In this document: piece after piece, positions 1 to 11,624 of the stretch
Numbering within the stretch: the stretch's first letter is position 1
Layout of the letters: each line of letters opens with the position of its first letter
From: Promethearchaeota archaeon
GTDB taxonomy: Archaea; Asgardarchaeota; Lokiarchaeia; Sigyniarchaeales; SOKP01
Reading direction: 5' to 3'
NCBI GenBank assembly: GCA_048941265.1
Contig: JBHLNT010000129.1
Location: 1-11,624 of the forward strand
DNA: 11,624 bases
Position numbers and translations under genes: made by a program
The notes under the pieces: model-generated
Databases searched by the model: none
The model's input: the letters and a program-made list of their open reading frames with translations, nothing else
What the model was told of the DNA's origin: nothing

Positions 1-50
1 CTAAATTAACGTTTACACTCTTTAAAAAATATCAATTTCTTCCAAAAACT

Positions 51-332
51 ATGAAATTAATAGAAACTGAGATTGTATTTGGATCTGAAGAAATGGAATA
101 TTTTAATAAAGCGAAAATCCTTAGCCAAAACTACATGTTTTTCTCTAAATGGGAGGCAGTAATTCCGAAAATCTTAGAGAAAAATCAGTTTGTTGTGGTA
201 TTGCTCTTTTTAGCCGAAAGCTATGCCAATGGAAGAGCCTACACGCTTGAAGTTGTTTTTGATAAAAATTCAAAAGAGGTAGTACATATAGCTGATGGAT
301 TTGGTCGTGATTTAACCGATCACCACGGCTAA
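51..332 (+). CDS. Hypothetical protein, possibly 5'-truncated by the window edge
   Basis: 93-aa ORF. The same frame is open without stops from position 3, so the real start may lie outside the window. No family recognised. Confidence 0.6.
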   Translation: MKLIETEIVFGSEEMEYFNKAKILSQNYMFFSKWEAVIPKILEKNQFVVVLLFLAESYANGRAYTLEVVFDKNSKEVVHIADGFGRDLTDHHG

Positions 333-381
333 AAAGTTGAAAAATAAAAAAATGGTTCTACTTTTTTTAAATCTAAATATT

Positions 382-516
382 CTAGTTAGCAAAAGGCAGT
401 GCTAAAGTTAGGAAATACGAGAAATCTTCAGTACAAGAGTATATCTCAGAGCATCTCCTTTGTTTTTCATACCTTTCTTCCAACGTTCGAGCTTTTTCAT
501 GCTTTAATTCATTCAT
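382..516 (-). CDS. Small hypothetical protein, 44 aa (MNELKHEKARTLEERYEKQRRCSEIYSCTEDFSYFLTLALPFAN)
   Basis: Translated by hand; not in the ORF track. ATG at 516 is preceded by a strong AAGGAGGT Shine-Dalgarno (532-525) with an 8-nt spacer. TAG at 384-382. Confidence 0.7.
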   Translation of the reverse strand: MNELKHEKARTLEERYEKQRRCSEIYSCTEDFSYFLTLALPFAN

Positions 517-666
517 ACTTTTTTACCTCCTTTTGTGAAACATAAAAGATTTCAAAAATATTGTGAAAAATTACTATTAATAATCTTCATATGAGTTTTT
601 ATTGAAAAATAAATAAATCTAATTATGCAGATTAACGTTCAAAGTAATTTCTTTTTTAAAATATAA

Positions 667-828
667 TTATTTATCTCTATTGGATGATTCCAAGCTTTTT
701 CTTCTTATATATAGCAAAATCTTAACTATAATATACACGCCTATTATAATTATACCTATTGCTCCAACAACCATTAAGAAATATGCAGCACCCAAATTTC
801 CTTCAAAATTTACTGTATCTAAAATCAT
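667..828 (-). CDS. Small single-pass membrane protein, 53 aa (MILDTVNFEGNLGAAYFLMVVGAIGIIIIGVYIIVKILLYIRRKSLESSNRDK)
   Basis: Translated by hand: ATG 828, TAA 669-667. Long hydrophobic segment followed by a basic RRK cluster (positive-inside pattern). Confidence 0.65.
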   Translation of the reverse strand: MILDTVNFEGNLGAAYFLMVVGAIGIIIIGVYIIVKILLYIRRKSLESSNRDK

Positions 829-914
829 CTTTTCTTATTAAGGAGTAAATTTTCAATTTTAATAATTGAGTTATGATTACTATATATAGAGTAAGATAAA
901 AGAACTTACCTTTC

Positions 915-1508
915 ATGTTAGAAAATGGCATTATTTTAAAAATTAGGAATTACGCAATTGATAACTCTGAGAGTAATGATATCCACGGATTTTCTCATGT
1001 TCAGCGAGTTTATAATACATGCGTTAAGATTGGTCAAAATTTAAATGCTAATATGAAAATACTAAAAATAGCGGCCCTTCTTCATGATATTGGCAGAATA
1101 GATGAGAAAAAAGATCCTTCTAAAAAAAATCATGCAGAAATTTCAGCTATAAAAGCAAAAGAATTTTTAGCTACTAACAATTTTAATCTTTCTCAAAAGG
1201 AAATTAATAATATTATTCATGCAATTAGCGCTCATTCATTTTCAAATAATATATCTCCTCAAACTCTTGAAGCAAAAATTCTTTCGGACGCTGATAAATT
1301 AGATGCAATTGGTGCTATAGGTATATTTCGAACAATTGGTTTTACATTACAAAATAGTGGGAGTATCGACCAAATAATAGAACATCTTAAAAATAAGATT
1401 TTAAAATTAAAAAATAAAATGCATTTAGATTATTCAAAAAAGATTGCTCAAGATCGTCATAAAATTACATTGGAATTTTACAATAAATTAAAAAAAGAAA
1501 GAATTTAA
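915..1508 (+). CDS. HD-domain metal-dependent phosphohydrolase (YedJ/YpgQ-like)
   Basis: Motifs HGFSHVQRV, AALLHDIGR, NHAEISA, AISAHS and DADKLDAIGAIGIFR are typical of this HD subfamily. Confidence 0.9.
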   Translation: MLENGIILKIRNYAIDNSESNDIHGFSHVQRVYNTCVKIGQNLNANMKILKIAALLHDIGRIDEKKDPSKKNHAEISAIKAKEFLATNNFNLSQKEINNIIHAISAHSFSNNISPQTLEAKILSDADKLDAIGAIGIFRTIGFTLQNSGSIDQIIEHLKNKILKLKNKMHLDYSKKIAQDRHKITLEFYNKLKKERI

Positions 1509-1518
1509 ATTTTAAATT

Positions 1519-1547
1519 AAAATCTTAGCCTTTAATTCTAGGATTTT
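1519..1547. terminator. Imperfect hairpin between convergent genes, possible terminator
   Basis: AAAATCTTAG (1519-1528) pairs with CTAGGATTTT (1538-1547), with one G-U pair and a 9-nt loop. It lies between the convergent HD and Fe-S genes. Confidence 0.3.
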
Positions 1548-1589
1548 TGTGAATTTAGAGTAAAGAATAAAAAATAGAAGTTAGATTCT

Positions 1590-2168
1590 TTATAATCGTC
1601 TCCTTGGTTTTGGAGGACAATAATAAACCGATGGACTTGTCCCAACTTCAGGTTTTAATTGAAATACCTCCCTTGATCCAATTTTTTGCGAAATAAGACT
1701 GTTAGGGTCATTTAGATCTCCAAAAAATATAGCTTGTCCCTCACAGCAAATAACACAAAATGGTTCAAGTCCCTTATCTATTCTATGAACACAGAGATTG
1801 CATTTTTCTATTATGTTTTTTTCTTGAATATAAAGGATAACATTATAAGGACAAGCATTCACACATGCTTGGCATCCATCACATTTTTTTTCCTCATAAA
1901 TAACGGGTCCATCTTCTCGTTTAATCAATGCATCATTAGGGCAAGCATCTACACAAGGAGGATTGGCACAATGATTACAAAGACGCAACAACCATTCCAA
2001 TTTTACATCAGGATATTGACCCGAAGGAGTATCTTTTTGAGGTACATTTTGAGTCTCAACCTGAATCCAGTGCCCTATTGAGTTATTCTCAATTTTACAC
2101 GCTACTGTGCAAGCTTCACAGCCAATACATCGTTCTTGATCTATAACTAAACCTAATCTTTTGCTCAT
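1590..2168 (-). CDS. 4Fe-4S dicluster electron-transfer subunit (DmsB/NrfC/TtrB-like four-cluster protein)
   Basis: Four Cys groups: CIGCEACTVAC, CNHCANPPCVDACP, CDGCQACVNACPY and KCNLC...PFCVICC, plus FGDLNDP. Its start overlaps the stop of the catalytic subunit (ATGA). Confidence 0.95.
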   Translation of the reverse strand: MSKRLGLVIDQERCIGCEACTVACKIENNSIGHWIQVETQNVPQKDTPSGQYPDVKLEWLLRLCNHCANPPCVDACPNDALIKREDGPVIYEEKKCDGCQACVNACPYNVILYIQEKNIIEKCNLCVHRIDKGLEPFCVICCEGQAIFFGDLNDPNSLISQKIGSREVFQLKPEVGTSPSVYYCPPKPRRRL

Positions 2169-4438
2169 CTTCCGCCCTCCTTATATTTGATAACTTCCAC
2201 AGCTACATCGTTCATGTGCATATTCGGTTCATAAACTTTATTCTGAACTGGATTGATTTTATCATGTGTAAGATGATTAACACTTCCCTCTTTAAATTGT
2301 TCAATCCACCAGCCCTCGGTGATATTAACTACTCCAGGTCCCACGGATTCACTAATCCTCGCTTTGAGAGTGGTACGGGCTCTATCATTAAGTACAGTTA
2401 CTATATCATTATCGGAAATGTATCTTGCCTTGGCATCAATCGAATTAATTTCTACAATTGGTTCCGGGTTTAGTTCAAGCAGAGACTTTACATTTGAGAA
2501 CATTGAATGGGTTCGAAAACGACTATGACCTTGGATAAATGTTAAAGGATATTTTCTCTTTTCTGGAGTAATAGGAGCTTCAATCGGAGGTAAATAGACT
2601 GGAAGAGCCTGACCATCTTCTACAAGTTGTTCAGCATAAAGTTCAATTTTTCTCGAGGGCGTTCTAAAATTTAAAGGAAAATTACCACCTTCAGGGAGTT
2701 CTCTTAAGAGCATAGCACCTTTACTTAGTGTCTCTCGATTATATCCTTCTAATGAGGAATGATTCGTAATAAGATCTATCATGCCTTCTTCTCCGCCCTT
2801 AAAATATTCTCCATATCCTAATTTTTCGGCAAGTCCTGCGACGATATTTACATCTGATTTGGATTCATACAGCGGCTTAATTACTTTCTGTTGAAGCTGT
2901 ACATAGGGATAAGGATGAGATACAAAATCAGAAAATTCTAAAAAACTACAAACTGGTAATAAAAGATCTGCATAGCGAGCAGAAGGAGTCATGAACAATT
3001 CTGATTGTACAATAAACTCTAATTTTGGATAAAATTGATTTATAATTTTGTTATAGTCAACACATTGATTTAAGAAATTGATAAATGCAAACCAAAGCGC
3101 TTTTATAGGATATGGTTTTCCAGAAATTACTGCTTCATATAAATTTAAAATACCAAGCCTATGAAAACTTGGCTTATCAGGAACGGCTTTAAGAAATGGA
3201 TCCCAATTTAAAATCGCCGGAATATAACCTGAGCTAAAAGAAGTAGATACATGACCGGTAATACTCGCGACGGAACATAAACCTCTTAATGAGATATCTC
3301 CATGATACGTTCGGGTAAATCCCATATATGTGAAAAAAGTAACATTATCAGTAGTTCCTAATTTTTTCGCTAATTTGATTATTAAGTTGGCCTCAACTCC
3401 AGTTATCTCTGCTGCTTTTTCGGGTGGATATTCTTGAGCTAAATCTCTCAAAAGTTGAAAGGCAGGTTTACATTCAATCCCATTTACTTCATAAGTCCCT
3501 GTTATGCTCGCAGATTCTATACCTTTTCGCCGAATCGGTTTTGCAGAATTTGAACTTTCATCCCAAATAATATATGAGTCTGCTTTTTTATCTCCAATAT
3601 CTTTGCCGCGAAGAAGTTTGCCATTATCATTTCTTACTAAATAAGGGCCATTTGTATATTCCCGAATAAACTCTATATTATGTAGCTTATTTTGAAAAAT
3701 CACGTTCATAAGTCCTAAAGCAAGAGCACTATCCGTACCGGGTTTTAACCCAAGAAACTCATCGGCCTTAGAAGCAGTTACAGTAAATCGGGAATCAATA
3801 ACTACAAGCTGTGTACCTGCTTCTTTCGCATCCATTATTTTTCGCATAGTCTGAAGAGGCATAGATTCACCAGGATTCGCACCCCACACAACCAATAGTT
3901 CAGGCCAATTTCTCTGCCAAAACTTACCAAAAAGATACATATAAGGAAATTGACTGCCAAAAATAACCCTACTCCCGCAAGGTAGACCCGCATCTCCATA
4001 CCCCCAAGCACTTACCCGAGTGCTTTGTGTCAAACTTGCTATTCTAAGATATGCTCCAAACTTAGTGGTACCAGCACCAGGACCACCTAATACCCAACCT
4101 ATTGATCTCCAACCATATTTGTCTGATATTTCCTTAAATTTCTTGACAATGATTTCATACGCTTCATCCCAGGAAATGCGTTCGAATTTTGCTTCACCTC
4201 TCTCTCCAATCCTTTTCATCGGATATTTCAAACGATCTGGATGATAGGTAATATCTAAACTGGAAAGTCCTCTTAGGCAAATTCTACGATCTACTTTGTT
4301 TGGAAACTCGGCGGGTTCCAACTTTATAACCCGATCTCCTTTTACATGAGCTAAAATACCACAAGCATCAATACCACAGTGTGCTGGACAAGCTGTCCTG
4401 ATTAGTTTTATTTCATTGTTTTCATTGCTTTCTGTCAT
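2165..4438 (-). CDS. Molybdopterin (Mo/W-bisPGD) oxidoreductase catalytic subunit, DMSO reductase family
   Basis: N-terminal Fe-S motif C17-x3-C21-x4-C26...C54. Family motifs YHPDRLKYPMKR, ERISWDEA, WGANP, PGTDSALALG, TPSARYADLLLP and HSRFRTHS, plus a C-terminal molydop-binding domain. No twin-arginine signal. Confidence 0.95.
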   Translation of the reverse strand: MTESNENNEIKLIRTACPAHCGIDACGILAHVKGDRVIKLEPAEFPNKVDRRICLRGLSSLDITYHPDRLKYPMKRIGERGEAKFERISWDEAYEIIVKKFKEISDKYGWRSIGWVLGGPGAGTTKFGAYLRIASLTQSTRVSAWGYGDAGLPCGSRVIFGSQFPYMYLFGKFWQRNWPELLVVWGANPGESMPLQTMRKIMDAKEAGTQLVVIDSRFTVTASKADEFLGLKPGTDSALALGLMNVIFQNKLHNIEFIREYTNGPYLVRNDNGKLLRGKDIGDKKADSYIIWDESSNSAKPIRRKGIESASITGTYEVNGIECKPAFQLLRDLAQEYPPEKAAEITGVEANLIIKLAKKLGTTDNVTFFTYMGFTRTYHGDISLRGLCSVASITGHVSTSFSSGYIPAILNWDPFLKAVPDKPSFHRLGILNLYEAVISGKPYPIKALWFAFINFLNQCVDYNKIINQFYPKLEFIVQSELFMTPSARYADLLLPVCSFLEFSDFVSHPYPYVQLQQKVIKPLYESKSDVNIVAGLAEKLGYGEYFKGGEEGMIDLITNHSSLEGYNRETLSKGAMLLRELPEGGNFPLNFRTPSRKIELYAEQLVEDGQALPVYLPPIEAPITPEKRKYPLTFIQGHSRFRTHSMFSNVKSLLELNPEPIVEINSIDAKARYISDNDIVTVLNDRARTTLKARISESVGPGVVNITEGWWIEQFKEGSVNHLTHDKINPVQNKVYEPNMHMNDVAVEVIKYKEGGR

Positions 4439-4477
4439 AAAACAAAAAACACACAGTTTTTATTCAAATTCTTAAAA

Positions 4478-4514
4478 TCGTTATATTATATTCAAATTGT
4501 CTTGATATATCAAG
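4478..4514 (-). promoter_or_regulatory. Putative promoter/operator of the molybdoenzyme operon
   Basis: Minus-strand TATA-like ATATAACGA (4486-4478), 40 nt upstream of ATG 4438. Perfect 14-bp palindrome CTTGATATATCAAG at 4501-4514. Confidence 0.4.
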
Positions 4515-4549
4515 TTTTATATTATTTTTGTAAAATTTTTTGTTTAAGT

Positions 4550-4561
4550 GAAAGTTTATAA
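4550..4561 (+). promoter_or_regulatory. Archaeal BRE + TATA box for the 4594 small ORF
   Basis: Purine-rich GAAAG followed by TTTATAA (4555-4561), about 33 nt upstream of ATG 4594. Confidence 0.5.
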
Positions 4562-4593
4562 CCTAGTTAGATAATTATTGATATGACTATATT

Positions 4594-4764
4594 ATGGCTG
4601 AAGAAGAAGATTTTGAAATGGAAGATGAATCTGATAACGAAGATGTCAAAAAGGAAAAGGCTCAATTAGACAGTTTAGGAGTAGCTAGTACATGGAATAT
4701 CCTGACTGATTCTAAAAAAGAGAAAAAAGAAGAAAAAAAGCCCGAATTCAGAGGGTTCAAATAG
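4594..4764 (+). CDS. Small charged, probably disordered protein, 56 aa (MAEEEDFEMEDESDNEDVKKEKAQLDSLGVASTWNILTDSKKEKKEEKKPEFRGFK)
   Basis: Translated by hand; not in the ORF track. Protein-like composition, upstream BRE-TATA and downstream T-rich tracts. Confidence 0.75.
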   Translation: MAEEEDFEMEDESDNEDVKKEKAQLDSLGVASTWNILTDSKKEKKEEKKPEFRGFK

Positions 4765-4883
4765 ATATCTTTGGTTATTTTTACATTTCTTTTCATAACA
4801 ACTCATTCTTAATATTTTTGAGCAGTTATAATAGCTTTAAAAAAAAAGAAAATAAAAATTGTTCTTTTTTAATTGAAATGTCC

Positions 4884-5018
4884 TTATTGTTCCTTTAGGA
4901 ATCTCTTTTTAATCATTTCAAGCATCATAAAGCCAATATAAAATATAATCGCACTTAAGACAAGTATTAACCGAAAAGGTGGAAAAGATAAAACTGTTTC
5001 TAAGGTATCAATCGCCAT
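4884..5018 (-). CDS. Small single-pass membrane protein, 44 aa (MAIDTLETVLSFPPFRLILVLSAIIFYIGFMMLEMIKKRFLKEQ)
   Basis: Translated by hand. ATG 5018 is preceded by AAGGGA; one hydrophobic helix followed by KKR; TAA 4886-4884. Confidence 0.6.
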   Translation of the reverse strand: MAIDTLETVLSFPPFRLILVLSAIIFYIGFMMLEMIKKRFLKEQ

Positions 5019-5116
5019 ATTCCCTTAACTCAAATAACTACAAAATTAATACATCTATCATATTTTATTCTTATTTAAAACTATTTAGAGTAAAGGAAAA
5101 ATAAAAGAAGATAAAT

Positions 5117-5674
5117 TTAATAATCAAGAGAAAATGTTTTTTTAACCCAATTTTCAATATCTTCACGAGAATTAGATTGGGGCTGTGCGTCCTTATATAC
5201 GTCCCTTTTCCGCTCTTCCTCCATATTCTTCGAAAAATCACGTATTTCTGTTATGGTGCCATTTTCCACTTGAATCTCAACTACGATCTTAAACGCCATT
5301 GGCCGCTGAAACCCCATATGGACGTACATTTGTTCAATGAAGTCTTTTGCTAATAAAACTTTTCCTGTGAATTTAGTCTTAAAATTTAAATTTTGATAGC
5401 AATAGTCAAATAAAGAATTACCAGTTTCTTTGGCAGTTTAAGGCTCGATTCCATTAATCTTAGGAGGTTTTTTTGTATTTACTAGCATTCCATCTAAGAT
5501 TAATTGGTCGTTTTTGAAGCTATATTTCATGACATACCCTCTCCAGCTGGCCGTACATCTAAAATAAGGTTGTATTCCAAAAACTTCAGGAGTTGGCAAT
5601 TCATTCCCTTTAAGACCTACAAGGGAAAACTTCTCTTCGTTATAGATAAATTCATCCGGAATTTGTGCTGTCGT
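5117..5674 (-). pseudogene. Interrupted conserved hypothetical gene (TAQIPD...TAxWRGY...YVHMGFQRP type)
   Basis: ORFs 5438..5683 and 5117..5329 share a frame and are joined through one TAA (5440-5438) by stop-free sequence TAKETGNSLFDYCYQNLNFKTKFTGKVLLAKDFIEQ. The codon 6 nt after the GGAGGTG SD (5687-5681) is ACG (5674-5672) where ATG is expected. Confidence 0.8.
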
Positions 5675-5686
5675 TAACAACACCTC

Positions 5687-6976
5687 CTAATAGAGTTTTA
5701 AAATAATATCCATTATATTCTGAAATTTCTCTTCTGAGCCCCATATTACATAAATTACATTATCGATAGGGATGGCAACTTCTTTTATTGCAACAATCCA
5801 ATCAGGACCAATATTATTTGCTATCTTACTATCTTCTTTAAACTTGAGAAAAATGGATGCTCCAAGATATTCTTGGACCTTAGTATATTCGATTTTCATT
5901 TGTTCAAAACCGGGGATTACTCCCTCTTTTTTTAATTTCTCAATCTGCTCTTCAATTTTATTATATACAAGGTCTAACTTATCTCGAACTCTTAATTCAT
6001 CGATTATATCTTTATCATATTCAAAAAAAATAATCCCAAAATCCTTTTCAAGTCCCATTATGCCTAAAACATCAATATCAAAAACCTCTCTCCCTAATGA
6101 CTGAGAATCTTTATAGCGTTTAGAGATATCTTCCCATCCATTACTCACATATTCGTCAATTAATAGTCTGAAACTTTTAAGAATTTTTATTTCTTCTTCT
6201 TTTTCCTTAATTATTTTATTTACTAAATCTCCTATAGGCCTTGCAACATAAACCTGTGTGCCTCTTGGAGTTTCTAAAACCTTTTCAACCCAATTTTTTT
6301 TTAAAAGCCTTTCGATTATACGATATATTGTTGTCCTTTTTATAACTAATTCTTTATTCAAATTCCCTACTGTTTCTCCCTTTTCACCTTTATTCAGCAA
6401 GGCTAAGTATACCCTTGCCTCATCTGGGCTTAGTCCAAATTTCTGTAATCCCAAAGTTTTTAATATTTTAGAGGTATCAAATAAAAATTTAGGAGAAACA
6501 GTCTGTGCAAAGGGAGTTTCATCCCCTAATAAAGCATCGGGGGATATATAAGGTTCTTTTGTACTCATTAAGCTTAATGCTCTTGAACATAATGTTATTA
6601 CATCAATTAGCTGAACTAACCGATCCTCTTCATCCAAAGAAATTTTACAAATTATTTTTCTATCCTCATCTTTATACCCAACAATAAAATCTCTTCGATT
6701 TGAAGAAAAGGCAACTAGCTTGTCATAGGTGTTTTGAATTATTCTATAAATTATTCCCATTAGCTCTATAATTTTTACATTTTTAAATTCCTCAGAGCCC
6801 CATATTACAGTAATATTTTCTAAATCTCCGCTAATATCCCAATTAAATGTGTAATACACTAAAATACTCTTTATTTCTTCACCTTTCGCATTTTTAATTG
6901 ATTCTATAATTGCTAAGGAATTTATATTTAAATCAGAATCCATAAAAGAATCTGCAATTTTCTCGTAATTGGTCAT
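5687..6976 (-). CDS. Transcriptional regulator: N-terminal profilin-like domain + TrmB-type winged HTH + uncharacterised C-terminal domain
   Basis: ORF-track aa ~185-257 (LQKFGLSPDEARVYLALL...IKRTTIYRIIERLLKKNWVEK...VYVARP) match the TrmB N-terminal HTH pattern. Aa ~10-150 (SLAII...YTFNWDISGDL...LMGIIYRIIQNTYDKLVA...IVG) resemble Loki profilins as recalled. The start is probably ATG 6976; the ORF track gives 7003. Confidence 0.8.
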   Translation of the reverse strand: MTNYEKIADSFMDSDLNINSLAIIESIKNAKGEEIKSILVYYTFNWDISGDLENITVIWGSEEFKNVKIIELMGIIYRIIQNTYDKLVAFSSNRRDFIVGYKDEDRKIICKISLDEEDRLVQLIDVITLCSRALSLMSTKEPYISPDALLGDETPFAQTVSPKFLFDTSKILKTLGLQKFGLSPDEARVYLALLNKGEKGETVGNLNKELVIKRTTIYRIIERLLKKNWVEKVLETPRGTQVYVARPIGDLVNKIIKEKEEEIKILKSFRLLIDEYVSNGWEDISKRYKDSQSLGREVFDIDVLGIMGLEKDFGIIFFEYDKDIIDELRVRDKLDLVYNKIEEQIEKLKKEGVIPGFEQMKIEYTKVQEYLGASIFLKFKEDSKIANNIGPDWIVAIKEVAIPIDNVIYVIWGSEEKFQNIMDIILKLY

Positions 6977-7012
6977 ATAAAGAGAAATTCTATTACATTT
7001 CATGCTATCATT

Positions 7013-7037
7013 TCGTTATATAATTATAGTATAATTA
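7013..7037 (-). promoter_or_regulatory. Putative promoter of the profilin-like/HTH gene
   Basis: Minus-strand ATATAACGA (7021-7013), 37 nt upstream of ATG 6976, abutting the palindrome TAATTATA-G-TATAATTA (7021-7037). Confidence 0.35.
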
Positions 7038-7073
7038 AAAAAATAAAATAATTTACCCGCCAATTTTTAGACT

Positions 7074-7304
7074 TCAAAGCAGGCTGTTTTGTTTGTTTTT
7101 AAATTTTTCTTTTAAATCTTTCAGCAAATCTCTCATACAATCATTTTCTTTAGATCTTTGAATACGTGTGAAATCATTTAGCCTTGAAAAATGCTCCGAC
7201 TTGATATTATGCTCCTTTTTATTGTCATCGATTTCATCTGGGCCATCTGACAAAACGATGCAGGGAATTTCGTCTATTACTTTAATTTTTACCAATCTTC
7301 TCAC
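7074..7304 (-). CDS. Small hypothetical protein directly downstream of actin, with a C-terminal amphipathic helix
   Basis: 76-codon ORF starting 30 nt after the actin stop. GGTGA (7305-7301) lies 5 nt before TTG 7295, which suggests a 73-aa product starting MVKIKVIDEIP. The protein ends MRDLLKDLKEKFKNKQNSLL. Confidence 0.7.
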   Translation of the reverse strand: MRRLVKIKVIDEIPCIVLSDGPDEIDDNKKEHNIKSEHFSRLNDFTRIQRSKENDCMRDLLKDLKEKFKNKQNSLL

Positions 7305-7334
7305 CCATATTTGAAATTTAAACCAAATTGGATC

Positions 7335-8474
7335 TTAAAAGCACCGATGAATTACCTGCGGTCCCATTTCCTTATATTCACGCCGGGTTATCCACATCCT
7401 ATCAAATGTTTTCAGTGATGCCAATATCGAACCTCCAATCCACACGGAATACATTCTTTCGGGAGGGGATATGATCCTTACATCTACCGAATCAGGGATC
7501 TGTTCCTTGATTTCTTTAGCTAGGCGCTCTTTAAATCCCGGATACATGGTAGAGCCTCCCGAAAGAACGATATTTGAAAAAAGTTCTCTCCTTAAATCTA
7601 CATCGCACTCGTAGATCGCCCCCACTATTAGATCATCTAATGGATCTAATTCCTTTCCGACAGCCGACGGATTGAAGAAACATTCGGGAGCGAGAAACCT
7701 CTCAACACCTACATTAATAGTTTCTCCGTCAGGTAGCATGAAGCTCTTCTCCATTCCTGCCACTTTTTTGGAAAGCATTACCTCCTTTTCAGGATCTAAA
7801 GCGACATAGCAGAGCTTTTCTTTTACGTCCCTGACAATCTCCTTCTCGGCTGAAGTCATAAGGGTCACTCCTTTTTGCCTTAATAGTCTCTGTAAATAAT
7901 TTGTAACATCACGCCCGGCAAGATCGACTCTTTGGATTGCATGACTTAACGCAAATCCTTCAAAGATCGGTACAATATGAGACACGCCATCGCCAATGTC
8001 TATGACAGTCCCCGTTACGCGCCCTGAGGCATACAGCGATAAAACCGCCTGTGTTGCAACGTATAATGCAGGTACGTTGAAAGTTTCAAACATGATTTCG
8101 CCCATTCTCTCCCTATTTGATCGTGGATTTAATGGAGCCTCAGTCAAGAGTACCGGATGCTCTGAAGGATCCACTCTTAAGTCTGTGTAAAATGTATAAT
8201 GCCAGATTTTCTCCATAGCCGTCCAGTCATCAACAATTCCATGCTCAATCGGAAAATTAAATTTCATAATACCTGAGAGTTCCGCCGCCTCCTCACCTAT
8301 ATAGTATTCTCTTGTAAAATGTTTATATTCAGCAAGAATATTATGATACTTAGGAGTACCAATCATAGTAGGAAACACGGAACGAGGCTGGTCTTCGCCT
8401 GCATATCCGTTTTTTGAAATTCCCGTACCATTGTCCAAAACGATTGCCTTTGAAAATTGCCCATTATCTGCCAT
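7335..8474 (-). CDS. Asgard actin (Lokiactin-like, eukaryote-type actin homolog), 379 aa
   Basis: Actin hallmarks throughout: IVLDNGTGISKNG (phosphate 1), PIEHGIV, EHPVLLTEAPLNP, QAVLSLYASGR, DIGDGVSH (phosphate 2), DLAGRD, KEKLCYVALD, LPDG, NIVLSGGSTMYPG, PPERMYSVWIGGSILASL and C-terminal HRCF. GGAGG (8487-8483) lies 8 nt before ATG 8474, favouring it over GTG 8489. Confidence 0.97.
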   Translation of the reverse strand: MADNGQFSKAIVLDNGTGISKNGYAGEDQPRSVFPTMIGTPKYHNILAEYKHFTREYYIGEEAAELSGIMKFNFPIEHGIVDDWTAMEKIWHYTFYTDLRVDPSEHPVLLTEAPLNPRSNRERMGEIMFETFNVPALYVATQAVLSLYASGRVTGTVIDIGDGVSHIVPIFEGFALSHAIQRVDLAGRDVTNYLQRLLRQKGVTLMTSAEKEIVRDVKEKLCYVALDPEKEVMLSKKVAGMEKSFMLPDGETINVGVERFLAPECFFNPSAVGKELDPLDDLIVGAIYECDVDLRRELFSNIVLSGGSTMYPGFKERLAKEIKEQIPDSVDVRIISPPERMYSVWIGGSILASLKTFDRMWITRREYKEMGPQVIHRCF

Positions 8475-8676
8475 AATCTTTTCCTCCACTTTAATATCTT
8501 ATTTTATTTAGATTAATTTAAAGGAATCAAACATAGATTTTATGATAATGCTATTGTTTAGACTGAATTTACCTAAAATCATCTACCGCAATATATTATC
8601 TAAATCCAATCTTGATTCCGTTGTTTTTTACAATTGTTTTGTTAAAATATTAATGGTAAAACACCTATTTAAACTT

Positions 8677-8694
8677 TGTCACCATTCCGTGACA
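8677..8694. promoter_or_regulatory. Inverted repeat TGTCAC-N6-GTGACA upstream of actin, candidate operator
   Basis: Perfect 6-bp arms (8677-8682 and 8689-8694), followed by palindromes GTCATGAC (8695-8702) and ATGATCAT (8705-8712). Confidence 0.35.
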
Positions 8695-8937
8695 GTCATG
8701 ACACATGATCATAACATAAGATCCAACAATCGAGGAAAAGCTATGTATTGAGCAAAAGATTGTAAATTTAGAAATATAAATATCATATGAACTATAGAAA
8801 TATGTTATTCTTTAGAAAAAATGAATTAAATATATCTAAAAAAAAAAATAATTAAATAAAAAGATAAAACTACAAAAATCACTAAATTTATAACGTCAAA
8901 TGATTTAAATAGTCGGGATTCCTTATTATTTCTAGAT

Positions 8938-9327
8938 ATATCGAATTTAAATCCTAAAAAAATTTATGAAGAATACGAACAAGGTAGTTTGACAAAGTCA
9001 GCTACTTCCGAAAAGCTCATATTCATAATTGATAATCAAGATGATGAGGAGATTAGAATCGAAGCAATTGAACTACTTCAAAAGGTCGGCTTTACAAGCG
9101 AAAACGTATTCAAATGCATGTAATCTAATCTACTCTCAGATATGAATTATAGAATAAGGAAGTTGGCAGTTAAACAACTTTTAAATCTTTTTCCAGTCAA
9201 ATGCATAAAGTCGTTGAGATCAATCATTGAACAAGAAAATTCAATCAAGATGATTGCTTCATTTTTTGATATTTTGAAGCATCCGATTCGTTCCATAGCT
9301 TTTCGCAATAATTATTTTATTTTTTAA
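8938..9327 (+). pseudogene. Degraded HEAT-like helical domain gene, resembling the N-terminus of Lokiarchaeia LRR proteins
   Basis: The frame reads ISNLNPKKIYEEYEQGSLTKSATSEKLIFIIDNQDDEEIRIEAIELLQKVGFTSENVFKCM*SNLLSDMNYRIRKLAVKQLL... with one TAA at 9121-9123 and ATA at the expected start. HEAT-like patterns (DEEIRIEAIELL, SDMNYRIRKLAVKQL) occur on both sides of the stop. Confidence 0.7.
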
Positions 9328-9403
9328 TATTTCTTAATTTAATGAAATAGATTAGAAATCAATAAAAGAAATATTAAAAATTTACTATTAAGAAGGTGGC
9401 AAT

Positions 9404-10120
9404 ATGGAATTGTTAAGAGATATTTTGGATAATGATGAGAAAATATTCTGGATGAAAGAATTAAGTCGCAGAACTATATTACCTTTTTATTATGATAAGA
9501 AAGGAAAAAAACGAAGGACAAACAAAAGAATTCAGAACTATTATGAAGTAATGAAAGTATATCGCTCTGATAAGGTTTTAGAAGACTATCCTATTATTCT
9601 TACTCTTACCAATAAACACATCATTAGACATGAAGTTAATGATTATGATTATCCTTTATGGTATGGGGAATGTGATATTTCCCATATTTACGAATATCGT
9701 AATGAATTTTGCTTCTATAATTTGAATGAATTAACAGATATATGCAAGAATATTAATCCTAAAAGAAATAAATATGAACTTGGACTCTATTTTGATTTGA
9801 ATGAAAAATATATGGGCGATGATGCACCAAATGTTTGGTTAGATAACTTATCGAAAAAGGATTACAAAGAAATTTTAGAATTTTTATTAAGAATTGTTCC
9901 TCATGTAAAAATCGATTATCTTTTTAAAAAACAAGAGAAATATGAAAAGGATCTCTCTAACGAACCAATTAAAGATCTCTTACCCTCATATTTAGTAAAA
10001 GAAGAAATAAAAAAGAGCGAATCGTGTAAATTCTGTAATGAGAAAGTTAATGCGGATGCAATTTTCTGTCCCAACTGTGGAAATAAAATTGACCCTAATT
10101 ACTTTATTTCTAAAGATTAG
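9404..10120 (+). CDS. Hypothetical protein with C-terminal zinc ribbon and possible bacterial-PH-like N-terminal domain
   Basis: C-terminal CKFC-x10-CPNCG zinc ribbon. ILDNDEKIFW and LTLTNKHII resemble bPH-type motifs. AGAAGGTGG precedes the ATG. Confidence 0.8.
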   Translation: MELLRDILDNDEKIFWMKELSRRTILPFYYDKKGKKRRTNKRIQNYYEVMKVYRSDKVLEDYPIILTLTNKHIIRHEVNDYDYPLWYGECDISHIYEYRNEFCFYNLNELTDICKNINPKRNKYELGLYFDLNEKYMGDDAPNVWLDNLSKKDYKEILEFLLRIVPHVKIDYLFKKQEKYEKDLSNEPIKDLLPSYLVKEEIKKSESCKFCNEKVNADAIFCPNCGNKIDPNYFISKD

Positions 10121-10698
10121 TTTATTTAATTAATATTTGAATGAATTTTAGAATGAAAATAGCGGAATTGTTATTCTACCTGACTCAATTTACGAGATGA
10201 TCATCACATCTCAAGGCTTTAAAGATAAATTGAGTAAAATTTTCAAATACCTTGGGCATGACATCAAATTCAGGGTATGAAATCAATTTGGATTAATAAA
10301 AAAAAAGCTTCATAAATTCAGCTCCTTAATGATTTTTTCGTCATGAAATCTGATATCAGAACCTTTTTACAGAAAAGTAAGAATTTAAATATTTATATAT
10401 TATTTTCTTTATTAATTCTCAGATAACCAAAAATTGAAACATTTTCACAAGAAATTCAATTAAATTAGGCTACATTTTGATAACCAAAATTCTAAATATA
10501 GCGTCAATGGTTATGTTTTTAGATATCAAAAGAAAGAAGAGAACAGGATTAACTTGAGATATTATAAAGTATTTTTCAAATACATGTGAAGACGAAAATT
10601 TACTAAGGATAATAATAGAGAGTTAAAATTATTAGGAAATATTAAAGACATAAAAGAACTAAAAATAGAAGTTATAATAAGAGGCTTGTTTTTCTTAA

Positions 10699-11624
10699 AT
10701 GAATATTGAAATTCCTACTAAGCAAAACTTCAGATGGAAAAAAATTTTATTGATTAAGCCCAATTACCGTCTCAGTAATGCTGATATTCAATTTGTTCAT
10801 ATGAATTTACCTCCAATAAATTTATCCTATATTGCAAGTTATTTGGTTGATTTGGATGTCGTGGTAAAAATCCTTGATGCAAAAGTAGCTAACTTAAATT
10901 ATAAACAAATTAGGAAAAATATTAAGAAATTTAATCCAGATATTGTAGGAATTACAGTTTTTATTTCAGCAGCTATTAATGTATGTTATGATATTGCAAA
11001 AATTGTAAAAGACTTTAATCCAAATTGCATTGTCGTATTTGGAGGGCGGCATTTCATCTCTGAATCAGATGAAACATTAAAAATTAATGAGGTTGATATT
11101 GTTGTTAGAGGAGAAGGAGAATTAACCTTTAGAGAATTGATTAAAAAAGGAAATCCTGAAAATGTGAAAGGAATTTCTTATATTTCAAATGGGAAAATTG
11201 TGCATAATCCAGAGAGGAGTCTAATTAAAGATTTAAGAAACTTGAGGTATCCAGCAAGATATCTTATTAAAAATAACAAATATAAGATGTTAACCGTCAG
11301 AATCGAAACGATAGAAACCTCAAGAGGATGCCCTTATAGATGCAAATTTTGTGTCACCCCTATTTTTAATAAAGGATTATGGAGACCACGACCAGTTGAG
11401 AATATAATTACAGAATTAAAAATGATTTCACAAAGCAGAAAAATTTCTGATATATTATTCATCGATGACAATTTTACTCAAGATACAAAAAGAATTGAAA
11501 GAATGTGTAAAAGAATAATTGAATGCAAAAAAAAAAAAGAGATAAATGATTTTAAATTTCTTGCTCAAGTAAGAGCTGATTCCATAGTAAAATCTCCTCA
11601 AATGGTAAAAAAAATGGCTGAAGC
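10699..11624 (+). CDS. Cobalamin-binding radical SAM protein (class B methyltransferase/BchE-like), 3'-truncated by the window
   Basis: Not in the ORF track because there is no stop in the window. Hand translation from ATG 10699: KILLIKP...PPINLSYIASYL...PDIVGIT...VVFGGRH...DIVVRGEGELTF (B12-binding domain), then ETSRGCPYRCKFC (CxxxCxxC) and FIDDNFT. Confidence 0.93.
   Translation, partial: MNIEIPTKQNFRWKKILLIKPNYRLSNADIQFVHMNLPPINLSYIASYLVDLDVVVKILDAKVANLNYKQIRKNIKKFNPDIVGITVFISAAINVCYDIAKIVKDFNPNCIVVFGGRHFISESDETLKINEVDIVVRGEGELTFRELIKKGNPENVKGISYISNGKIVHNPERSLIKDLRNLRYPARYLIKNNKYKMLTVRIETIETSRGCPYRCKFCVTPIFNKGLWRPRPVENIITELKMISQSRKISDILFIDDNFTQDTKRIERMCKRIIECKKKKEINDFKFLAQVRADSIVKSPQMVKKMAE

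Follow-up and report, generated by a model that had tools for sequence, protein, structure and literature searches.

A profilin-homologous head on a TrmB-type DNA-binding protein encoded behind an accessory lokiactin

The window analysed here is the whole of an 11,624-nucleotide stretch from the genome of a Promethearchaeota archaeon (GTDB Lokiarchaeia, Sigyniarchaeales, SOKP01; assembly GCA_048941265.1, contig JBHLNT010000129.1, positions 1 to 11,624). Its reverse strand carries a cassette running in one direction: a palindromic candidate operator next to a TATA box, an accessory lokiactin gene that we call actin-2, and the gene of a 438-residue protein in which a profilin-homologous domain stands in front of a TrmB-type winged helix-turn-helix (HTH) and a C-terminal α/β domain. 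We refer to this last protein as the regulator. Profile searches, structure prediction and comparison with related loci suggest that it may couple the state of the actin pool to transcription of the linked actin.

Domain architecture of the regulator

The regulator is encoded at 5687-7003 on the reverse strand and has 438 residues from the ATG at 7003; its homologues mostly start at the position of Met10, the ATG at 6976. An earlier sequence-only reading of the window had described a profilin-like domain fused to a TrmB-type winged helix at 6233-6976 on the reverse strand. These coordinates correspond to residues 10-257 of the open reading frame (ORF), and every one of the strings on which that reading relied (AII, NWDISGDL, MGIIYRIIQNTYDKLVA, IVG and KIIC) is present in the translation. 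The protein runs on for a further 180 residues, a part that the earlier description left out. A large protein collection holds 138 homologues at E ≤ 1e-3, and the best 120 of the 138 are about 400-474 residues long, align over nearly their full length with 40-86% identity and all contain the TrmB family PF01978. An alignment of 61 homologues (A1) formed the basis of a profile search and of an AlphaFold2 (AF2) model of the whole protein, which has a mean predicted local distance difference test score (pLDDT) of 76.9 and a predicted template modelling score (pTM) of 0.38.

The profilin-homologous domain covers residues 10-150 (6554-6976, reverse strand), on the evidence of profile matches to the Protein Data Bank (PDB), Foldseek matches, the order of secondary structure and the match to a paralogue. 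Searched against the PDB as a single sequence, the regulator has Asgard profilins as its best matches (5zzb_A, E 0.089; 5yed_A, E 0.17). The 61-homologue profile reaches E 1.4e-13 for Loki profilin-1 (5yed_A) and 1.1e-12 for Loki profilin-2 (5zzb_A), and it gives 2.1e-9 for Odin profilin (5zza_P) and 3.5e-8 for 7pbh_A, an entry deposited as 'Profilin' under a title naming a Thorarchaeota profilin. The next matches after the profilins are MarR-type HTH proteins at E 0.1. Because the single sequence has profilins as its best PDB matches and the profile raises these to E values between 1.4e-13 and 3.5e-8, the likeness to Loki profilin is not due to chance.

The predicted fold leads to the same assignment. 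In the AF2 model the head consists of a helix (13-23), two strands (27-37 and 43-51), a helix (58-67), five strands within 78-122 and a C-terminal helix (128-146), which is the order of profilin. The five best Foldseek matches of the regulator model in the PDB are 5zzb_A, 5zzb_C, 5yed, 5yee_A and 5zza_P, with E values from 4e-7 to 2e-6 and template modelling (TM) scores, normalised to the target, of 0.69-0.75; the leading match is 5zzb_A (E 4.2e-7, TM 0.74 on the target). Below the Asgard profilins come a poxvirus profilin-like protein and eukaryotic profilins, and the first six matches are all profilins or profilin-like. No roadblock, longin, GAF or PAS chain occurs among the first 11 matches (E ≤ 0.001), and none so named is found among the 50 matches listed. 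Low-probability matches to GATOR1/KICSTOR complexes stand at ranks 29, 42 and 44, and CodY, a protein with a GAF domain and a winged HTH, gives only a loose whole-chain match (about 300 columns, TM 0.24). With Asgard profilins leading both the sequence profile and the Foldseek comparison that the sequence-only reading had proposed as a check, its profilin call is borne out. Judged by profile and predicted fold, the N-terminal domain is a genuine profilin homologue.

Two motifs, NW(D/N)IS and Y.I..NT.ER, are common to the head and stand-alone Asgard profilins. The insertion of about ten residues described earlier (SIKNAKGEEIKS) is real and forms a lineage-specific hairpin, with extra residues at that place in 4 of the 61 aligned homologues; a second insertion in the domain comprises three residues (KII/IEL).

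Residues 151-185 (6449-6553, reverse strand) form a linker that is modelled with low confidence and contains the conserved motif S(S/T)KxPY..LG. This motif also stands behind the profilin domain in stand-alone paralogues. The nearest relatives of the head are indeed such 'profilin plus tail' paralogues of about 205 residues, rather than the small classical Loki profilins, and they occur in 28 of 29 other genomes of the family. The paralogue in the window's own genome (L001, 201 residues) matches regulator residues 19-172, linker motif included, at 28% identity (E 6e-16). Besides the regulator, this genome (G000) encodes at least four further profilin-fold proteins, all on the reverse strand (C282:7684-8118, C212:6883-7302, C320:17998-18270 and C343:14226-14501). 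One of the four, of about 135 residues, resembles Loki profilin-1, one has 125 residues and two are longer (201 and about 250 residues); in the longer two the domain is followed by an S(S/A)KxPY..LG tail and further helices.

The TrmB-type winged HTH occupies residues 186-254 (6242-6448, reverse strand) and matches PF01978 with E 1.1e-14 and 54.5 bits against a cut-off of 25.6. Its columns are nearly invariant in A1, and its recognition helix reads KRTTIYRII. As the sequence-only reading had pointed out, the HTH is placed behind the profilin domain and is thus central rather than N-terminal as in canonical TrmB. The AF2 model continues with a long helix at residues 257-287 (6143-6235, reverse strand), a candidate dimerisation coiled coil as in TrmB-family proteins, and with a predicted C-terminal α/β domain at residues 314-438 (5690-6064, reverse strand; β-β-α-β-β-α-β-β-α, pLDDT 77). 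In a Foldseek comparison of the whole model, a match to TrmBL2 (5bpd_D; E 7e-4, 303 columns) spans the HTH, the helix and the C-domain, with a TM score of 0.29 and a root mean square deviation (rmsd) of 19 Å.

Modelled alone, the C-domain has no Foldseek match at E ≤ 1e-3. A VIA search with it returned Z-scores of 7.5 for Apa, 6.9 for DcrB, about 6.5 for Mog1/PsbP and about 6 for class II synthetase cores, all within the background range. The ESM Atlas gave sub-threshold scores of at most 0.88, with FilR1_middle as a weak lead. PF01978 is the sole Pfam family detected in the regulator at E ≤ 1, and PF11495, the sugar-binding effector domain of TrmB, has no match at this level. An internal duplication, considered from the string VIWGSEE in both the N- and the C-domain, was rejected, as BLASTP aligned only a 14-residue stretch that lies in different structural contexts.

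Proteins of 283-308 residues that consist of HTH, helix and C-domain and have no profilin head are found in related genomes. Their existence makes it likely that the regulator arose when a profilin-plus-tail gene was fused in front of an HTH-plus-C-domain regulator. Other TrmB-type proteins are also encoded in the window's own genome, for example on C180.

The linked lokiactin, its promoter and a predicted complex

Actin-2 (7335-8474, reverse strand; Pfam Actin PF00022, E 2e-129) has 379 residues. The ORF listing starts at a GTG at 8489. This codon is probably not the start and the ATG at 8474 is, because the matching codons hold a stop in six related loci and a GGAGG lies 7-8 nucleotides upstream of the ATG. 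A locus scan with one genome per species returned 45 loci, 41 of them with a near-full regulator. In 39 of these 41 the next gene upstream, on the same strand, is an actin gene, which amounts to 39 of 39 testable loci, the remaining two having less than 640 nucleotides of upstream DNA, so that linkage cannot be judged there. The 39 actins are 62-95% identical to actin-2, and the distance from the actin match to the start of the regulator match is 52-605 nucleotides.

The regulator has a narrow distribution. In a sample of 151 genomes across the Asgard phylum (completeness ≥ 80%; full-length match defined as E ≤ 1e-150), a full-length regulator was found in 10, including the window's own, all of them in one GTDB family; the 121 genomes of 24 other Asgard families have none. 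A wide spread over Asgard classes, which NCBI labels (Hod-, Hermod-, Odin- and Thorarchaeota) would imply, is contradicted by this distribution, and in the actin tree the class-labelled sequences nest among near-identical 'Promethearchaeota' ones. Seven loci (L007, L009, L016, L020, L036, L040 and L041) come from metagenome-assembled genomes (MAGs) titled Hod-, Hermod- or Odinarchaeota. Their linked actins hardly differ from those in 'Promethearchaeota' MAGs, and the NCBI class labels of these regulator-bearing MAGs look unreliable.

Within the family, 56 of 61 sampled genomes contain lokiactin, most copies being 83-84% identical to actin-2 with almost uniform scores, and 15 of the 61 contain a full-length regulator. 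By genus, these are 3 of 10 genomes in g1, to which the window's genome belongs, 6 of 11 in g5, 5 of 7 in g6, 1 of 11 in g2 and none of the 22 in nine other genera. The survey that the sequence-only reading had suggested limits the profilin-TrmB architecture to roughly one genome in four within a single GTDB family. A second lokiactin adjoins the regulator in 14 of the 15 regulator genomes; it shares 75-81% identity with actin-2, or 95% in the case of G162. The one remaining genome, G181 (71% complete), yielded a canonical copy only. No actin-2-type copy was seen in the 46 family genomes that lack the regulator, including G170, which has two lokiactin copies, both of the canonical type.

The window's own genome also has a canonical lokiactin. 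The end of a contig cuts this copy short (C89:12466-13299); it shares 87% identity with actin-2 and has no regulator behind it. In a quick maximum-likelihood tree, 17 canonical sequences including this fragment form one tight clade (Shimodaira-Hasegawa-like approximate likelihood ratio test, 99), and the 37 regulator-linked actins lie on much longer branches with an unresolved backbone, the outgroup of actin-related proteins (ARPs) being on very long branches. Mean pairwise identity is 98.3% among canonical and 82.8% among linked actins, and 83.4% between the two sets. By this sequence comparison the window's actin is a faster-evolving second lokiactin and not the canonical copy. The 'neighbouring actin' of the sequence-only reading is an accessory paralogue.

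Thirteen diagnostic positions separate canonical from linked actins, four of them within residues 44-54, the region of the DNase I-binding loop (D-loop). There, linked actins have G44, P48, K51 and S54 where canonical ones have E, T, E and T; further diagnostic positions lie at 65-85. These differences hint at altered filament contacts in the spare isoform. In one locus the linked actin (L005:1652-2719) has seven in-frame stops at residues 284-328, and the operator is degraded to 11 of 14 positions; either the cassette is decaying here or the assembly is wrong.

For the promoter, we compared 300 nucleotides upstream of the linked actin at 36 loci and in the window, 37 sequences in all. Five loci were left out, three with missing upstream DNA or a partial match (L014, L032 and L041) and two without an actin (L004 and L026). 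In the window, the main palindrome, CTGTCAC-GGAATG-GTGACAA at 8676-8695, corresponds to the consensus TTGTCAC-N6-GTGACAA and is the candidate operator. On the reverse strand it is followed by the TATA box TTTAAATA at 8666-8673, and a second, weaker palindrome, TGTTAT-GATCAT-GTGTCA at 8699-8716, lies 22 bp upstream. These elements are found about 190 nucleotides before the actin-2 ATG at 8474.

The palindrome is conserved throughout the set. Exact arms of the form TGTCA-N8-TGACA are present in 24 of the 37 promoters, GTCAC-N6-GTGAC in 23 and TTGTC-N10-GACAA in 19, and in none of 20 shuffles does any palindrome reach more than two loci. In 32 loci the best 20-mer shares at least 12 of 14 positions with TTGTCAC-N6-GTGACAA, and in all 37 it shares at least 10. 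In five loci it reads TTGTCGC-N6-GCGACAA, both arms being altered together so that the palindrome is kept. A TATA box ([TC]TTA[AT]ATA) follows in 37 of 37, at a distance of 2-3 nucleotides in 27, 5 in one and 12-13 in nine; in these nine an additional GTGACAA-like half-site fills the gap. The second palindrome (TGTYAY-N6-RTRACA, at least 10 of 12 positions) lies 21-22 bp upstream in 15 of 37 loci; in shuffles the mean is 1.8 loci and the highest count at any offset is 5.

The operator is also specific to this promoter. The window's own genome (5.0 Mb, 91% complete) contains one site at up to one mismatch, against none for a reversed control, and at two mismatches operator and control both give four. 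Half-sites beside a TATA box show no excess genome-wide (2 against 1-2 in controls). A wider regulon was considered and rejected, since no further operator rises above the control level in the genome. Nineteen canonical lokiactin promoters of 515 nucleotides match the operator at no more than 10 of 14 positions, none with both arms; a twentieth stretch of only 60 nucleotides was uninformative. No conserved operator-like palindrome was found between the actin gene and the regulator, and the 930-nucleotide intergenic region (8480-9410) holds only the two palindromes, with no repeat array or operator repeat family. Canonical lokiactin promoters (L049-L068) share features of their own across genera: a conserved AAAAAAATTTATAAA about 200 nucleotides upstream, a long AT-rich leader, and GGCTGAAAA before the ATG; they have no palindrome.

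Variants of the operator follow variants of the regulator to some degree. In loci whose recognition helix reads KRTHIYRII (n = 8), the spacer ends are A...T in 5 of 8, against 0 of 19 KRTTIYRII loci with TCAC arms, and regulators at loci with the TCGC operator have their own residues flanking the recognition helix. Operator variants may thus track regulator clades, although with so few evolutionary events this comparison lends weak support. Where the helix reads KRTTIYRII and the arms are TCAC, the spacer mostly begins and ends with one and the same base (G...G or C...C) instead of a complementary pair, which makes the site slightly asymmetric.

A complex was modelled from the window actin (alignment A3, 25 linked actins) and regulator residues 11-150 (A1). 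It scored 0.66 (individual runs 0.70, 0.66 and 0.64), and the best of three controls scored 0.00; of 157 solved complexes 116 attain the mark used for this score, as do 2 of 215 mismatched pairs. At least 94% of contacts recur between the runs, with a partner pLDDT of at least 82. The predicted contacts join actin 144-178 and 351-379, which form the barbed-end cleft, to regulator 87-112 and 123-144, the strand motif and the C-terminal helix. The model that the sequence-only reading had called for thus places the classical profilin face on the barbed-end cleft, and this face shows no visible degeneration. The regulator has the strand motif NTxER in common with the Loki profilins crystallised on actin, and conserved residues of the head are Q90, T92, E94, F110, D112 and R141. 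At all 28 actin contact positions the majority residue is identical in actin-2 and canonical lokiactin, so that the head, if it binds, could report on both.

Genes and signals around the cassette

Between actin-2 and the regulator lies a small conserved ORF of 76 residues from a GTG (7074-7304, reverse strand). Homologues of about 65-76 residues occupy the same place in eight related loci (38-70% identity) and follow the pattern IKIKVIDGIPCI...FT.IQ.SKE...KKKF; no Pfam family matches the window's ORF above its cut-off. In Lokiarchaeum ossiferum an abundant 6-kDa protein is encoded behind the canonical Lokiactin.

Upstream of the regulator ATG at 7003, the sequence contains a run of seven T (7037-7043) and, about 20 nucleotides before the ATG, a TATA-like TTATATAA (7016-7023), both on the reverse strand. 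Sixteen loci have a regulator match that begins within 160 nucleotides of the actin stop codon; every one of them has 5-14 consecutive T behind that codon, and a GGAGG-like site is frequent ahead of the regulator start in these short intergenic regions. From the sequence, a possible source of regulator transcription in the window is leaky read-through or a weak internal promoter.

On the 3' side of the regulator, two small reverse-strand ORFs at 5438-5683 (81 residues) and 5117-5329 (70 residues) recur in 11 of 41 related loci with 54-83% identity, always about 100-110 nucleotides apart and with no Pfam family. They may be members of the cassette or simply conserved neighbours. Further on, the window contains an HD-domain gene (PF01966; 915-1508, forward strand). 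About 30 of 41 related loci have such a gene within a few kilobases on the downstream side of the regulator, for the most part in opposite orientation, and this recurrence speaks for a conserved chromosomal context rather than a mobile element. No mobile-element genes were seen among the ORFs and Pfam matches of the window.

A possible link between the actin pool and transcription

The reading that we favour, with about even confidence, is that the protein is a one-component regulator through which transcription of the spare actin responds to the pool of actin monomers. It builds on what is observed at these loci: the domain homologies, the linkage of the genes, the specificity and uniqueness of the operator, and the accessory nature of the actin. 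From these we infer that the regulator binds the operator and that its profilin head binds actin, as well as the sign of both effects.

The mechanism that we propose would work as follows. The optional cassette is ordered as operator and TATA box, second lokiactin gene, sometimes the small ORF, and then the regulator. A regulator dimer would bind TTGTCAC-N6-GTGACAA and, in many loci, a second dimer would occupy the weaker palindrome two helical turns upstream. Since the promoter-proximal half-site lies where the recognition element of transcription factor B (TFB) would be expected, bound regulator would most likely block the TATA-binding protein (TBP) and TFB and so repress. Thermococcus TrmB represses the trehalose/maltose promoter by blocking TBP/TFB. 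The profilin domain would serve as the input of the regulator, as the sequence-only reading had suggested, each head holding one actin monomer at its barbed-end cleft. Monomer occupancy would alter operator occupancy, most likely raising it, which would give negative feedback of free actin on spare-actin synthesis. The regulator gene, behind a T-run and in the same direction, would probably be read through at a lower level and would then be autoregulated too.

A counterpart in logic is known from animals, where MRTF-A/SRF combines a transcription factor with an actin-monomer-binding module, so that cytoskeletal genes, those of actin among them, respond to the free actin pool. MRTF relies on RPEL motifs and on nuclear shuttling in place of a profilin and direct operator occupancy, and there is no homology to the regulator. 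The components of the regulator have closer relatives. Stand-alone Asgard profilins (5YED/5YEE, 5ZZB, 5ZZA and 7PBH) are homologous in sequence and fold, and the same actin face is predicted to be used; in contrast, the domain of the regulator is the head of a 438-residue DNA-binding protein, lacks a match to the Pfam profilin model PF00235 and carries a lineage-specific hairpin insertion. Members of the TrmB family in Thermococcales (TrmB, TrmBL1/Tgr and TrmBL2) share the winged helix followed by a long helix and, if the regulator binds its candidate operator, a palindromic site near the TFB recognition element and TATA box. TrmBL1 recognises the Thermococcales glycolytic motif TATCAC-N5-GTGATA, which the candidate operator core TCAC...GTGA resembles. 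Unlike these proteins, the regulator has a central HTH and no detected PF11495, and its presumed signal is a protein and not a sugar. CodY has the order of sensor, linker and winged HTH in common with the regulator, but its sensor is a GAF domain for small molecules, whereas the N-domain of the regulator is a profilin, and the TM score between the two is only 0.24.

Several points weigh against the favoured reading. PF00235 has no match in the regulator at E ≤ 1, and a six-frame search of the window's own genome with this model lists two other genes and not the regulator. Conservation at the regulator's predicted contact residues does not exceed that elsewhere in the domain (2.16 against 2.48 bits; one-sided Mann-Whitney p 0.97). 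Profilin and actin are a textbook pair with solved relatives (5yee, 5zzb and 5zza), so the complex model may be a matter of recall and would then show likeness only. At a pTM of 0.38, the full-length model is too uncertain to show the actin face as free or covered in the whole protein. The C-domain stands where TrmB proteins usually have their ligand site and may itself do the sensing. Operator and regulator sequences covary in one or two clades, which amounts to few events. Finally, TrmBL1 activates from a site upstream of the TATA box, which is where the operator lies, and the regulator could therefore also be an activator.

Some of these points lead to an alternative that we consider unlikely, though it deserves serious attention: the protein regulates the spare actin, but its head no longer binds actin and has become a dimerisation module or the receptor of another ligand (a proline-rich partner, a lipid or another protein), or else the C-domain carries the signal. 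The lack of special conservation at the predicted contacts and the absence of a PF00235 match agree with this, as do the four or more other profilin-fold genes in the genome, a sign that the fold has diversified. TrmB-family proteins sense through their C-terminal part, and the existence of paralogues with HTH and C-domain and no profilin indicates that the C-domain can work alone. However, a head with no connection to actin would hardly account for the constant presence of an actin gene beside the regulator, the complex is predicted on the canonical faces with clean controls, and the strand motif that contacts actin is common to actin-binding Loki profilins.

We regard as very improbable a second alternative, in which the cassette is a DNA mover like ParMRC. 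The palindromes would then be a centromere-like site, actin-2 the filament and the regulator an adaptor on growing barbed ends, with promoter control as a side effect. In ParR-parC-ParM, site and promoter overlap and the adaptor docks at the barbed-end cleft, and the order parC-parM-parR is that of DNA site (8676-8716), actin (7335-8474) and DNA-binding adaptor (5687-7003) here, in one direction and kept in 36 related loci. The genome has no second such palindromic site, and the optional cassette contains a fast-evolving actin (82.8% against 98.3% pair identity). The predicted adaptor face is the barbed-end cleft, as for ParR on ParM, and the actin-2-specific changes cluster at 44-54 in the D-loop region, a filament contact. 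In the form that we find equally hard to credit, DNA-bound dimers would offer two to four profilin heads to catch or feed the barbed ends of actin-2 filaments, and actin polymerisation would push or position the unique palindromic site, coupled to promoter control. If true, this would be a ParR/parC/ParM-like device built from eukaryote-type actin and profilin. Against it, there are one or two palindromes and no iteron or other repeat array in the 930-nucleotide intergenic region, and the palindrome abuts the TATA box at every locus. The neighbourhood is chromosomal and conserved, with the HD-domain gene at about 30 of 41 loci and no mobile-element genes seen in the window. Furthermore, actin-2 is a true lokiactin, 83% identical to the canonical one, with which it would probably co-polymerise, and the adaptor is unrelated to ParR.

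Just as slight is the chance that the protein is mainly an actin-2-specific profilin or chaperone, whose DNA binding only stores or localises it on the nucleoid in the manner of the chromatin protein TrmBL2. The Foldseek match to TrmBL2 over HTH, helix and C-domain and the position of the gene within the actin-2 operon, like that of a dedicated accessory factor, are in line with this idea. That match has, however, a TM score of only 0.29 and an rmsd of 19 Å, and the specific, unique and promoter-adjacent palindrome fits a sequence-specific regulator better. Least probable of all, in our view, is that another factor binds the palindrome and the profilin-TrmB protein controls other genes: the genome does encode further TrmB-type proteins (e.g. 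C180), but the palindrome occurs once in the window's own genome and only in genomes and loci with the regulator, its variants track regulator clades, and no alternative site for the regulator was found in the genome.

Returning to the actin-sensing regulator that we favour, we found no profilin-HTH fusion and no pair of lokiactin isoforms described in the full-text literature searched; Akil & Robinson 2018 and Ponlachantra et al. 2023 (Bioessays) were outside its scope and may mention fused forms. The accessible parts of two papers on L. ossiferum (PMC13716822 and PMC9834061) mention only free profilins and gelsolins, and the accessible part of a third (PMC10933270) compares profilin, roadblock and longin folds and describes no fusion. 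L. ossiferum has a single Lokiactin and three ARPs according to PMC9834061. UYP47030.1, encoded two genes after Lokiactin in that organism, was considered as an orthologue of the regulator. The assignment is probably wrong, because the cassette accompanies a second lokiactin and this organism has only one. The protein is listed in the L. ossiferum proteome (rank 1317) and is absent from the sheet of Lokiactin co-immunoprecipitation (CoIP) (PMC13716822), and we do not take it as evidence either way.

Searchable published work treats Asgard profilins only as free actin-binding proteins. If the favoured reading is true, a profilin-headed regulator linked to a spare actin and a 20-bp operator would form a direct wire from the state of the cytoskeleton to transcription in a prokaryote. 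Some Loki-type lineages have two lokiactin isoforms, one nearly frozen and the other fast-evolving and, on this reading, separately regulated, which bears on the beginnings of actin isoform specialisation.

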